A stretch of DNA of 48,241 nt, taken from a virus. Lineage: Duplodnaviria > Heunggongvirae > Uroviricota > Caudoviricetes. Below, in pieces: positions 12,001 to 15,000 of the stretch; the first letter of the stretch is position 1, and the number at the start of each line of letters is the position of its first letter. Location of the stretch: IMG/VR virus record IMGVR_UViG_2923307698_000003. One strand, 5' to 3'. A program made the position numbers.

Positions 12001-15000
12001 CGCAGGAGGTGCGCCAATGATCTGGCCTGAAGCCTTTGCAATTACAGGCGTTGCTATAGCTATTGATTTTTTAGTATATGTTATTTGTCGGTGGGGGTAA
12101 AAACGTTCGCCGGGATTCACACCAAAGGAGGGAATATGTCGGATGATATTTCACTGGCAATGGAAGGTGCGCTGGCTGTTATTGCTGTTGTGGGCGTTTA
12201 CTGCCTGGTTGTGTTTTTGATGGATCGACTAGGGAACTGAATTCATTACGATATGGGAATTCCCATATCGGGTAAAAACGGTTTGCGGTAAAGCGAGAGT
12301 TAAGTAGAATTGCTGCGGGTGCTTGAGGCTATCTGTCTCAGGCATGAACACCAAAAGGCAGATAGAGAAAAGCCCCAGTTAACATTACGCGTCCTGCAAG
12401 ACGTTTAACATTAATCTGAGGCCCAATCTATGCTTCACAAACGTAGGTTAGCCTCTTACGTGCCGAAAGGCAAGGAGAAGCAGGCTATGAAGCAGCAAAA
12501 GGCGATGTTAATCGCCCTGATCGTCATCTGTTTAACCGTCATTGTGACGGCACTGGTAACGAGGAAAGACCTCTGCGAGGTACGAATCCGAACCGGCCAG
12601 ACGGAGGTCGCTGTCTTCACAGCTTACGAACCTGAGGAGTAAGAGACCTGGCGGGGGAGAAATCCCTCGCCACCTCTGATGTGTCAGGCATCCTCAACGC
12701 ACCCGCACTTAACCCGTTTCGGCGGGTTTTGTTTTTTCCTGGCATTCTGGTTTACAATTCGCACGCCAGCCTGAACAACTGGCACCTGCTGCGCCAGCAG
12801 AGACAGCCGATGGCGCACGATACCAAATTACACAATTCTGATGATTCTGCCGTCTTTGCCAGCAGGCGCGGACGGTGTTTTCACGCATTCAAATCTGACT
12901 GGTACCAGCATCCCCCATGCACTGAAGAACAGGCCGAATGGCTCATTCAGTGTTACCGCAGGCGCGGATTCGAGGTTAAAAAAGCCCTTAGCCTCGACTA
13001 CCGTCACTGGATAATCTCCGTCAGGCCCCCTTACTCCGAACGGCCACCGCGTCCGTCCCGCACATTCCAGCAACGGATCTGGAGGTAATGTGCGGGTATT
13101 ACTTCGACCTGTTCTGGTACCGGAACTCGGTCTGGTTATCGTTAAGCCAGGCCGTGAATCAATGTCAGCATTCCATAACGGCAGAATACTGGTGGAGCCG
13201 GAACCAAAAAGCATGCGAGCTCTGCCGTCCGGGGTTGTACCTGCCGTTCACCAGCCGCTGGCGGAAGATAAATCACTACTGCCATTTTTCAGCGATGAGC
13301 GGGTGATCCGTGCTGCGGGTGGCGCTGGTGCACTGTCTGACTGGTTATTACGTCACGTGAAATCCTGCCAGTGGCTACACGGTGATTATCATCACAGCGA
13401 AACCGTCATTCACCGTTACGGTACCGGCGCGATGGTGTTGTGCTGGCACTGCGACAACCAGCTGCGGGAGCAGACATCTGATTCACTGGATCAACTTGCT
13501 CAACAGAATCTGGCCGCCTGGATGATTGACATCATCCGTCACGCAATGAATGGCGCACAGGAGCGTGAATTATCTCTGGCTGAATTATCCTGGTGGGCGG
13601 TCCGCAATCAGGTGGCGGACGCGCTACCGGAAGCGGTATTACGTCGTTCGCTGGGGTTGCGTGCGGAAAAAATCCGCTCCGTATACCGTGAAAGCGACAT
13701 CATACCGGGAGAACAGACCGCCACCAGCATACTGAAGCAGCGCACAAAAAATATTGCGCTACCGTCTCACACCCACCAGCAACAGAACCCACCACAGGAA
13801 AAGACGGTGGTCAGCATTGCCGTTGATCCGGAGTCTCCGGAATCCTTCATGAAACGACCTAAACGTCGCCGCTGGGTAAATGAGAAATACACACGCTGGG
13901 TAAAGACACAGCCGTGTGCGTGTTGTGGTAAGCCAGCCGACGATCCCCATCACCTGATTGGTCATGGTCAGGGCGGAATGGGGACAAAATCTCACGATAT
14001 TTTCACGCTACCGCTGTGTCGGGAGCATCACAACGAGCTTCATGCGGATCCGCTGGCGTTCGAAGAAAAGCATGGTTCTCAGGTTGATTTAATTTTTCGT
14101 TTTCTTGATCACGCCTTTGCAACTGGCGTGCTCGGGTAAAAGAGGTGACTGATGCTCATAGATTTGGTTTTACCTTACCCGCCGACGGTGAACACTTACT
14201 GGCGACGCCGTGGCAGCACATATTTTGTATCAAAAGCCGGGAAGCGTTATCGCCGGGCAGTGGCGCTTATTGTTCGCCAGCAGCGACTGAAATTAAGCCT
14301 GTCCGGACGGCTGGCAATAAAAATTATTGCAGAGCCACCGGATAAGCGCCGCCGCGACCTGGACAATATCCTGAAAGCACCGCTGGATGCGCTGACGCAC
14401 GCGGGGTTGTTAATGGACGATGAGCAGTTTGATGAAATCAATATTGTACGTGGAAAGCCAGTATCTGGTGGACGTCTGGGGGTGAAGATTTACCCCATAA
14501 TGCTTGAAGGGCAGGTCAAAAAATGAAACTGGAAGATTTACCGAAATACTACTCCCCAAAATCCCCTGGCCTGACCGATGCATCGGCCTCAACGTCAAAA
14601 GATGCGCTGAGTATCACTGATGTGATGGCCGCGCAGGGCATGACACAGAATCGGGCTGAGATGGGGTTTTCTGCGTTCCTTGGGAAAATGGGCATTAGTA
14701 TGAATGACAGAGAGCGGGCAACAGAATTGCTGACAGAATATGCACTCAGTCGGTGTGATCGCGTGGCGGCGTTAAGAAAACTCCCGGCAGAAATAAAACC
14801 GGCAGTGATGCGTATTATGGCTTCGTATGCGTTTGAAGATTATGCCCGTAGCGCGGCGAGCAAAAAACAGTGCCCCTGCTGTCACGGAAAAAAATTTATT
14901 GAAAGCGAGGTTTTTACAAACAAGATCCAGTATCCGGATGGTAAGCCGCCAGTGTGGGCAAAGTGCACAAAAGGCGTGTATCCGTCTTACTGGGAGGAAT

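Follow-up and report, generated by a model that had tools for sequence, protein, structure and literature searches.

An apparently intact hok/mok/sok cassette and two predicted membrane micro-genes side by side in the nin-type operon of a lambda-like prophage

Small hydrophobic reading frames next to a type I toxin gene raise the question of whether they belong to the toxin system or are only its neighbours. This question is posed by a locus in the window, by which we mean the whole 48,241-nucleotide stretch of viral DNA that was analysed. Here, in the early-right (nin-type) operon of a lambda-like prophage, between the replication genes and Q, a hok gene is found together with two very short reading frames, p27 and p34 (Table 1). 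An earlier note on this DNA had placed a Hok/Gef toxin ORF in a nin-type region, behind two single-helix hydrophobic peptides, and had proposed that the latter could be additional toxins or regulators. The toxin assignment is borne out by a Pfam match (HOK_GEF, 1.2e-23), and the nin-type setting by the position between the replication genes and Q. All three ORFs are present as well, with the 34-aa ORF shifted by one base, as its start lies at 12136 and reading from 12137 runs into stop codons. Our preferred reading, to which we assign a probability of about 75%, is that three independent units (an intact hok/mok/sok cassette, p27, and p34) stand side by side in this lambdoid operon, and that p27 and p34, accessory membrane micro-proteins of the phage, became neighbours of hok by phage mosaicism and serve neither as extra toxins nor as Sok-type regulators.

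Table 1. Coordinates of the features of the locus, in positions of the window
Feature	Position	Strand	Remarks
DUF551 gene	11319..12020	+	Stop overlaps p27 start (ATGA); Pfam DUF551 5e-21; in RefSeq
p27 Shine-Dalgarno AGGAGG	12004..12009	+	7 nt ahead of ATG; read from sequence
p27, gene for a predicted 27-aa single-helix membrane peptide (MIWPEAFAITGVAIAIDFLVYVICRWG)	12017..12100	+	Conserved family, mostly unannotated
11-bp direct repeat GGGTAAAAACG, left copy	12095..12105	.	Brackets p34 module
p34 Shine-Dalgarno AAGGAGG	12125..12131	+	Read from sequence
p34, gene for a predicted 34-aa single-helix membrane peptide	12136..12240	+	WP_001278450.1 = ECs_5710; inside ribosome-profiling ORF XECs145
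Perfect 22-bp palindrome CGATATGGGAATTCCCATATCG	12249..12270	.	Between p34 and hok promoter
11-bp direct repeat GGGTAAAAACG, right copy	12270..12280	.	Left edge of hok cassette
hok promoter	12283..12310	+	-35 TTGCGG 12283-12288, 16-nt spacer, -10 TAGAAT 12305-12310; read from sequence
hok mRNA, ~420 nt, 5' GGGUGCUUGAGG to terminator	12317..12736	+	Rfam model start at 12317; whole-transcript fold z = -8.0
5' element (tac-type)	12317..12328	+	Pairs with 3' fbi in minimum-free-energy fold
Sok antisense RNA, ~71 nt	12368..12438	-	Covers mok Shine-Dalgarno (12418-12421) and start codon; position carried over from annotated 933W sokW
mok, 70-aa frame	12430..12642	+	In frame with hok, common stop; GAGG Shine-Dalgarno 12418-12421; corresponds to annotated mokW
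Sok promoter	12445..12473	-	-35 TTGCCT 12473-12468, 17-nt spacer, -10 TAACCT 12450-12445; invariant versus 933W
hok toxin gene, 51 aa	12487..12642	+	Shine-Dalgarno AAGGAG 12472-12477; Pfam HOK_GEF, PHROG 251; exact sequence named HokD/HOKD_ECOLI
fbi-type 3' element CCUCAACGCACCC	12692..12704	+	Pairs with 5' tac-type element in fold
Intrinsic terminator of hok mRNA	12711..12736	+	Terminator itself placed at 12711-12728

Judged by its sequence, the region at about 12270-12736 is an intact type I toxin-antitoxin cassette with all canonical parts present. The toxin matches Pfam PF01848 over the full model, PHROG 251 at 2.8e-33, and the NCBIfam Hok subfamily at 5.7e-13, which is under the cutoff of that model; its RefSeq name is hokD. 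A full-length match (1-157) to Rfam RF01794 'sok' at 12317..12492 scores 118.5 bits, where the gathering score is 59; as this match lies on the plus strand, it seems to correspond to the hok leader, the target of Sok. The leader had been expected to hold mok/Sok control elements, and this expectation is upheld by the Rfam match, the mok frame, the predicted fold of Sok, and homology to phage 933W, with the correction that the hok mRNA starts at about 12317 and not at 12241. The AGTTAAGTAGAAT box of the hok promoter is kept in most sampled hok loci. Both the minimum-free-energy and centroid folds of 12317-12734 pair the tac-type and fbi-type elements, although the 5' end is identical in all 83 hok loci examined and tac/fbi covariation is therefore unscorable there. 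A hairpin followed by a U-rich tail is predicted for the Sok RNA (z = -4.6). The hok mRNA start and the Sok ends were placed by homology, whereas the Sok promoter was placed by homology together with a published mutation: the -10 box, which is the same here, was mutated in sokW(pro-less), and toxicity was unmasked (PMC8621323). A consensus promoter scan missed this promoter because TAACCT fits only three of six positions. The polymorphism count for hok was set aside, as deleted or frameshifted copies occur among its loci.

The cassette would work as follows. A weak promoter would yield a stable hok mRNA that is held closed by pairing of its 5' end with fbi; trimming of the 3' end would open it, so that mok, and via mok also hok, become translatable. 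Translation of hok through the overlapping mok frame is thus predicted by analogy. The short-lived Sok RNA would pair over the mok ribosome site and the duplex would be cut, blocking translation, and loss of Sok would allow Hok to enter the inner membrane and collapse it, as with hokW-sokW on prophage induction. The sequence elements themselves are seen here, while the steps from trimming onward are modelled on R1 hok/sok and hokW-sokW. Plasmid R1 hok/sok is the founding member of the family, and the window resembles it in the Hok/Gef toxin, the overlapping mok, the antisense Sok over the mok start, and the fold-back of the mRNA 5' end onto its 3' end. The two differ in setting, a prophage as against a plasmid, and in role, the one proposed here being to help lysis and phage release on induction and not post-segregational killing.

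More closely related is hokW-mokW-sokW of Stx2 phage 933W and Sakai prophage Sp5 (AF125520; Takada et al. 2021, PMC8621323), with about 93% DNA identity across the cassette. In that system the toxicity of Hok and the antitoxin activity of Sok have been shown experimentally, the toxin is reported to be about 44% identical to R1 Hok, and on prophage induction sokW RNA vanishes and HokW appears by an unexplained route (PMC8621323). The promoter, 5' end, in-frame mok, Sok promoter, and fbi sequence are common to 933W and the window, and a p27 homologue lies directly upstream of hokW. The homology to the 933W locus spans only about 12273 to 12706; just past fbi the 933W sequence diverges, at a place where the window has a clear terminator. 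Four residues differ at the toxin C-terminus (FTAYEPEE in the window, FVDYESEK in 933W), and the 933W copy sits in the b/ea region at the prophage end, without the p34 module and without the palindrome.

The exact 51-aa toxin carries the HokD name in K-12, where hokD (relF) belongs to the cryptic prophage Qin, and HokD was among the previously characterised toxic controls in another study (bioRxiv 10.1101/2025.08.07.668861). The downstream neighbours of Qin hokD are as in the window: homologues of rem, ydfU (DUF968), and Q. Upstream, K-12 homology starts only at 12473, in the hok Shine-Dalgarno sequence, and K-12 hokD sits behind relBE; the K-12 copy is therefore without the hok promoter, 5' element, mok start, and Sok gene. 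From this comparison the window appears to hold the complete version of the K-12 hokD locus. The core finding, a hok/sok toxin and antisense-RNA cassette, is already known.

As had been claimed, each of the two encodes a hydrophobic peptide with a single predicted helix, with one strongly hydrophobic stretch of 17 residues (Kyte-Doolittle 2.3 in p27 and 2.95 in p34). Both are kept in related prophages. At least 562 IMG/VR viral contigs carry p27, as do 92 records of phages and 181 of plasmids, almost never with an annotation. All ten intact variants have 27 codons and the ATGA overlap with the upstream stop, behind at least three unrelated upstream genes, and a GGAGG-type Shine-Dalgarno sequence is kept before p27 behind these unrelated genes. 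The median dN/dS is 0.22, as opposed to 0.82 and 1.68 in the other two frames. Within one clade, 26 distinct DNA versions carry 2, 0, and 16 polymorphic sites at the three codon positions, with 23 synonymous and 2 nonsynonymous variants. Across these comparisons omega is about 0.03-0.22. These patterns indicate that p27 is a real protein-coding gene under strong purifying selection. Three of 13 distinct variants are broken, so p27 would be dispensable in some phages. The product is predicted to be a single-pass membrane peptide, encoded by the last cistron behind the DUF551 gene and made through termination-reinitiation coupling, with the DUF551 gene as the predicted upstream partner; p27 tracks this upstream DUF551/Eaa-type gene rather than hok. 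Its motifs were not found among the rows listed in the supplements of the ribosome-profiling study that called XECs145, where the shortest ORFs listed are 93 bp and p27 is shorter. The published hokW-sokW construct started exactly at the p27 ATG (PMC8621323), and p27 was therefore never separated from hok in that work.

The case that p34 is a real protein-coding gene draws on comparison of homologues and on published ribosome footprints. A homologue of 29 aa, about 50% identical and with its own CAGGAGG Shine-Dalgarno sequence, is found in phages Evi, Tritos, and HannyBb and in E. ruysiae. At this level of protein identity the Shine-Dalgarno sequence and both ends of the frame, start and stop, are retained; variation is lowest at codon position 2 (16, 7, and 20 variable columns at the three positions), and replacements are conservative. 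Omega is 0.3-0.45, a weaker support than for p27, and the contrast in dN/dS with the +1 frame is weak (0.32 versus 0.40). The Sp6 locus of Sakai matches the window at 98% identity, and EHEC prophages carry a 34-aa sequence identical to p34 (XECs145/ECs_5710/WP_001278450.1) that was reported from the Sakai strain as a translated, inner-membrane-predicted novel ORF and is now a hypothetical protein. The description of the small ORFs as unannotated therefore fails for p34, which RefSeq lists, and largely holds for p27. In Sakai ribosome profiling, XECs145 has footprints of 346 RPKM against 79 RPKM of RNA at a coverage of 0.99, although its longer 5' end overlaps the p27 tail and reads may multi-map between prophages that resemble each other; the footprint-to-RNA ratio of 4.35, from exponentially growing cells in LB, places it among the better-translated novel ORFs. 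The 2017 call was for a longer 54-aa frame, whereas a start that gives 34 aa is favoured by where the Shine-Dalgarno sequence lies and by the 29-aa homologues. The region of the ribosome site folds no better than shuffles (z = +0.58), and the site is therefore likely to be accessible. The p34 product is probably a single-pass membrane peptide, made from its own strong and open ribosome site even in the lysogen. A literature search on ECs_5710, WP_001278450, and XECs145 found no paper naming them. Identity with the small protein YlcH of K-12 DLP12 was ruled out, as the sequences are unrelated. A weak terminator-like site inside p34 (12191-12207) was taken as chance, since the two such sites found are near the shuffle mean of 1.3.

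How the three units came to be joined is suggested by the sequences at their borders. The 11-bp repeat occurs just twice in the window, where 0.02 copies are expected, and in 933W p27 is joined directly to the hok promoter through the same GGGTAAAAACG sequence; p34 thus has the appearance of a small inserted module bracketed by the repeat. In the direct type of junction, the p27 stop codon is 6 nt from the hok -35 box. From one context to another the hok cassette keeps about 97% identity and the upstream ORFs only about 50-60%, and the junction is therefore probably a recombination boundary. The end of the operon may be a favoured point of recombination and insertion, and p27 and p34 would adjoin hok because of this and not because of hok control. 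Another direct repeat (12107-12126 versus 12336-12355, 75% identity) is without a counterpart in Evi-type loci and was taken as chance.

The proposal that p27 and/or p34 are type I toxins with antisense RNA antitoxins of their own, forming a toxin cluster with hok, appears very improbable. Size and a single hydrophobic helix do recall TisB, DinQ, ShoB, or Ldr-class toxins, and the minus strand has two weak promoter-like sites, 12160 to 12133 and 12101 to 12073 (nine of 12 positions each), which are directed into the 5' parts of the ORFs. However, the number of such sites is barely over that of shuffles (3 versus 0.9 +/- 0.9), they are not kept in Evi-type homologues, and over 12017-12240 neither a conserved promoter nor a terminator was found on the minus strand, nor any Rfam match even at E <= 1. 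Neither peptide matched a toxin or defence family in Pfam, NCBIfam, PHROG (best E = 0.01), or PADLOC. The open ribosome site of p34 and its heavy translation in healthy growing lysogens are the opposite of what is seen in a silenced toxin, and p27 is apparently coupled to an ordinary upstream gene, with which it travels. The suggestion of the earlier note that the peptides are additional toxins or regulators is consequently not retained. Still less probable is the view that one or both are chance frames in a non-coding spacer, where the conserved object is a DNA or RNA signal such as an upstream part of the hok promoter. Short ORFs are common by chance (2.8 kb contain 48 with 20 aa or more), some copies of p27 are broken, the 3' ends of p29/p34 persist as stumps before hok where the rest of the ORF is gone, and the dN/dS of p34 is similar in one alternative frame. 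Against this stand the synonymous excess and third-position bias of p27, its fixed length, Shine-Dalgarno sequence, and ATGA overlap behind different genes, and its occurrence far from hok, as well as the conserved signals, restrained second codon position, and ribosome footprints of p34. Frames of 27-34 codons are not unusual in themselves, and p27 and p34 stand above chance ORFs because of their Shine-Dalgarno sequences and conservation.

More serious, though still unlikely, is the idea that the small ORFs act with hok, either as membrane partners or modulators of Hok or as translated cistrons that set the level of early read-through into the cassette and towards the convergent Sok promoter; Hok release would in this way be tied to induction. 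By manual count, a small hydrophobic ORF in the same orientation directly precedes the hok promoter in about 51 of the 80 loci that encode an identical Hok. These ORFs belong to three unrelated families (p27, p29/p34, and one of 32-72 aa with CIEYWR as its last residues), and this recurrence is not obviously explained by pure neighbourhood. For one p27 variant, hok lies within 700 nt in 51 of 80 loci, p29/p34 adjoins hok in nearly all loci found, and the short distance from the p27 stop to the hok -35 box, the unexplained loss of sokW RNA on induction, and the inclusion of p27 in the hokW-sokW construct can all be read in its favour. On the other side, the same p27 variant is without hok in the other 29 loci, and p27 commonly occurs without hok, also in P1-like plasmids of about 95 kb; genes other than hok come after it in WGPS2, ArgO145, 666R9, TH18, BP-4795, PhiR12, and P1-like 813R1. 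Phage 933W has p27 and hok without p34, S. flexneri has p29 without hok, and other hok cassettes have unrelated DNA upstream with none of these ORFs, or only stumps comprising the last ~25 nt of p29/p34. Broken p27 occurs beside intact hok, and broken hok beside intact p27 and p34. The sharp fall in identity at the junction also speaks against a joint unit, and the locus counts were drawn from closely related prophages and are not independent. A wider form of the idea is slightly more doubtful again: that hok/sok of lambdoid prophages repeatedly has a functional partner in front of it, a translated and co-oriented gene for a single-helix micro-protein drawn from one of at least three unrelated families, and that this partner tunes the membrane action of Hok or couples early transcription to Sok loss, with p27 separately a widespread, essentially unannotated, and strongly selected gene. 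If true, coupling of phage early transcription to Sok loss would explain the disappearance of sokW RNA after induction.

Under the preferred reading of three independent units, the toxin cassette adds nothing new, being an intact and well-preserved example of a characterised system, and it shows the K-12 hokD locus as it may have been before relBE replaced the control region. The modest new value lies in p27, which annotation pipelines miss, which hundreds of phages, prophages, or P1-like plasmids carry, and which was unknowingly part of the one experimental construct of hokW-sokW. Should p27 or p34 affect Hok/Sok, the published conclusions on HokW release at prophage induction would need revisiting. 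If they have no such effect, p27 and p34 are still two candidate additions to a growing list of phage membrane micro-proteins.

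The 51-codon ORF encodes a full-length Hok/Gef toxin (Pfam PF01848, E=1.2e-23) that also matches PHROG 251 'MokW-like host killing' (2.8e-33), in agreement with the earlier note, and the three ORFs of 27, 34 and 51 codons that it described in 12017-12642 (here p27, p34 and hok) are present exactly as claimed. The p34 start lies at 12136; a frame begun at 12137 runs into stop codons. Public databases name the exact 51-aa product HokD (HOKD_ECOLI) and RefSeq names the gene hokD. Upstream of the locus lie genes for a YdaS/YdaT-like protein, an O-like HTH protein, a DnaC-like ATPase, DUF1627, DUF977 and DUF551, and downstream those for DUF968, RusA and antiterminator Q, all on the plus strand, so that the placement in a nin-type region, within a lambdoid prophage, holds. 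In phiSTEC1589-Stx1c (locus L101), a 156-nt CDS at 1486-1641 labelled 'tail fiber protein' occupies the place where tblastn puts the hok homologue and appears to be a mis-annotated hok gene. The hok Tyr47 codon TAC (12625-12627) lies inside CUUACGAA (12622-12630), a sequence similar to the tRNA-Arg-type motif for A-to-I editing by TadA. A preprint states in its introduction that editing recodes hokB codon 29, Tyr becoming Cys, and that a like phenomenon is reported at cysteine 46 of hokC, hokD, and hokE (bioRxiv 10.1101/2025.08.07.668861).

The mok/Sok control elements expected in the hok leader were recovered, as the Rfam sok family (RF01794) matches 12317..12492 with 118.5 bits against a gathering score of 59; no other RNA family in Rfam matched within 11800-12900 even at E <= 1. 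The cassette DNA is ~93% identical to hokW/mokW/sokW of phage 933W, from which the Sok position was transferred, and this homology extends from ~12273 to ~12706, limits that we therefore take as the edges of a mobile cassette. The anticipated minus-strand Sok promoter was missed by a consensus promoter scan as too weak a match, and was placed by its identity with the box altered by Takada et al. in sokW, a change that abolished sokW and unmasked HokW toxicity (PMC8621323). The predicted Sok fold is a long hairpin with a U-rich tail (z = -4.6). In the predicted fold of the hok transcript (12317-12734), the first 12 bases pair with CCUCAACGCACCC at 12692-12704 (z = -8.0), and this 5'-3' pairing is the tac/fbi fold-back that defines the family. 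Judged by these features, the hok/sok cassette of the window is complete and intact.

By analogy with R1 hok/sok and hokW-sokW, Sok would block translation of mok and hok, and its loss would let Hok reach the inner membrane, kill the cell, and speed phage release; loss of Sok on prophage induction has been shown for hokW (PMC8621323). The hokD locus of the K-12 Qin prophage differs in that its homology with the window begins only at 12473, so that it lacks the promoter, 5' element, mok start, and Sok, all four of which are found here; the window has that locus in its intact form. The hok SD and Sok -35 position (12473-12478) is a recurrent break point, since the Qin homology starts exactly where two viral contigs (L026 and L065) carry an insertion of ~1.1 kb in the hok SD (about 1962-3056), the size of which suggests an IS element. 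A further locus, L069, has an 88-bp deletion within hok. Given hokW-sokW as the closest characterised relative and the hok enrichment in prophages already documented in bioRxiv 10.1101/2025.08.07.668861, the core finding is already known; the searched text of that preprint makes no mention of neighbouring small ORFs.

Coordinates of the hok locus and of other RNA genes of the prophage
Feature	Position	Strand	Basis or remark
p27, 27 codons	12017..12100	+	conserved ORF, mostly unannotated
p34, 34 codons	12136..12240	+	WP_001278450.1; ECs_5710; XECs145
Direct repeat GGGTAAAAACG, 11 bp	12095-12105 and 12270-12280		brackets 175-bp p34 module
Perfect 22-bp palindrome CGATATGGGAATTCCCATATCG, central EcoRI site	12249-12270		between p34 stop and hok promoter
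hok promoter TTGCGG, 16-nt spacer, TAGAAT	12283-12310	+	kept in most hok loci fetched
Sok antisense RNA	12368..12438	-	933W annotation transferred; overlaps mok SD and ATG
Sok promoter TTGCCT, 17-nt spacer, TAACCT	12473..12445	-	identity with box mutated in sokW
hok toxin ORF, 51 codons	12487..12642	+	Pfam PF01848, PHROG 251
Intrinsic terminator of hok mRNA	12711-12728	+	terminator scan, transcript fold
DicF	4912-4963	-	
tRNA-Met (CAT)	17018-17093		downstream of Q and DNA methylase gene
tRNA-Arg (TCT)	17174-17250		downstream of Q and DNA methylase gene
STnc100	18020-18213		
AgvB, anti-GcvB sRNA	18214-18275	-	

On its codon evidence, p27 is a real gene missed by annotation, and its layout indicates coupling to the preceding gene. 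Homologues were found by tblastn in 92 phage and 181 plasmid records and by pattern scans in at least 562 IMG/VR contigs; the plasmids are mostly ~95-kb non-mobilizable P1-like replicons in which p27 adjoins DUF551/'eaa' genes. All 10 intact diverged variants have 27 codons, a GGAGG-type SD, and an overlap with the upstream stop, and the small ORF is thus conserved in related prophages. The 27-aa homologue of 933W, MTWPEAFANVGTVMAVVLVVYSICRWR, also overlaps the upstream stop in ATGA, yet stands behind a different gene than in the window. The median dN/dS of this frame is 0.22, whereas the other two frames give 0.82 and 1.68. One clade of 80 loci comprises 26 DNA versions and three peptides, with polymorphic sites distributed 2/0/16 over the codon positions and 23 synonymous variants (20 synonymous sites) against 2 nonsynonymous ones (61 nonsynonymous sites). 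Among the RefSeq and GenBank records fetched, p27 is annotated only as a frameshifted 36-aa hypothetical protein in phage 689R5, which has a 1-nt deletion; the exact sequence is named 'hypothetical protein' on five contigs only. Three of the 13 distinct variants are broken, by this frameshift and by a stop at W3 in POCJ13 and STEC1589. Across individual loci, the Trp3 codon TGG has become TAG in these two phages (L098, L101) and in L130, and TGA in L171.

As for p34, it is a gene already on record, both as a RefSeq hypothetical protein and in Sakai prophage Sp6, whose DNA shares 98% identity with 11900-14171 of the window. It figures as XECs145 in Hücker et al. 2017, there read as a longer frame of 54 aa, which their classifier rated 'real' and assigned to the inner membrane; in LB it gave 79.1 RPKM of RNA and 346.1 RPKM of footprints (ratio 4.35, coverage 0.99), from reads that may multi-map and are assigned to the longer ORF (PMC5597208). 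Conservation extends to p29, a ~50%-identical 29-aa homologue that starts with GTG after a CAGGAGG and is carried by E. ruysiae and by phages Evi, Tritos, and HannyBb. Variable columns of p34 number 16/7/20 by codon position, lowest at position 2, with conservative replacements and an omega of 0.3-0.45, evidence that is weaker than that for p27 but backed by footprints. This variation favours the p34 frame over a 25-aa hydrophobic ORF, MIFHWQWKVRWLLLLLWAFTAWLCF, contained within p34 in an alternative frame at 12143-12220; the same frame is open in Evi-type loci, ending RWLLLL.

The earlier suggestion that p27 and p34 are additional toxins is probably wrong. There is no antisense RNA signature over them at Rfam E <= 1 or in the minus-strand promoter scan, in which two promoter-like sites were marginal and not conserved, and neither matches a toxin family or any family in Pfam, NCBIfam, PHROG, or PADLOC. 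Moreover, the p34 ribosome site is open in fold analysis and p34 is strongly translated in healthy cells, according to the Sakai footprints (with possible multi-mapping and a longer ORF), while p27 is apparently coupled. Hydropathy suggests that both may be single-pass inner-membrane micro-proteins with a host or phage membrane target.

It is unlikely that p27 or p34 is functionally linked to the toxin system, even though a small, hydrophobic, co-oriented ORF (p27, p29/p34, or a third family ending CIEYWR) lies directly upstream in ~51 of 80 IMG/VR loci with identical Hok, and hok lies within 700 nt in 51 of 80 loci with one p27 variant; both counts come from related prophages and the events are not independent. 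The 933W-type junction is also tight, with 6 nt between the p27 stop and the hok -35. However, unrelated genes follow p27 in WGPS2, ArgO145, 666R9, TH18, BP-4795, PhiR12, and 813R1, and in some loci a strong terminator comes next, so that an operon can end with p27. Upstream of some hok cassettes there is unrelated DNA or only a remnant of p29 or p34, its final ~25 nt. S. flexneri carries p29 but no hok, and the cassette keeps ~97% identity between contexts whose upstream ORFs share ~50-60%. Decay is independent as well, as p27 and p34 remain intact despite the hok lesions of L026, L065, and L069, and broken p27 stands beside intact hok. In L104 and 14 similar loci, the third, unrelated hydrophobic ORF immediately precedes cassettes that are otherwise identical, ~90-190 nt before the hok mRNA start, and encodes MEKVDVLILIFGYINALFLGVFMAVMCIEYWR (32 aa), with earlier starts giving 59-72 aa.

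The repeats point the same way. GGGTAAAAACG occurs only twice in the 48-kb window (0.02 expected), on either side of p34, and in 933W it forms the direct link between p27 and the hok promoter. The p34 segment thus resembles a module gained by insertion, or lost by deletion, at a p27-hok junction. We conclude that p27, p34, and the hok cassette are probably neighbours at a recombination-prone operon end. The palindrome CGATATGGGAATTCCCATATCG, unique in the window, forms a 9-bp hairpin but lacks a U tract, so it does not obviously act as a terminator; it may instead be bound by a protein or stabilise an RNA end. It also precedes hok in two loci without p34 (L120 and L181), and the variant in L108 carries changes that are partly compensatory.

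What is mildly new is how broadly and how strongly selection acts on the unannotated p27 family. The insert of pBAD18-hokW-sokW starts at GAATCAATGACCTGGCCTGAAGC, the p27 start codon of Sp5 (primer YO-432; L001, ~1927-1949) (PMC8621323). As the plasmid begins exactly at this ATG, p27 was never separated experimentally from hok, and an unannotated ORF sat inside the construct that defined the hokW-sokW system.
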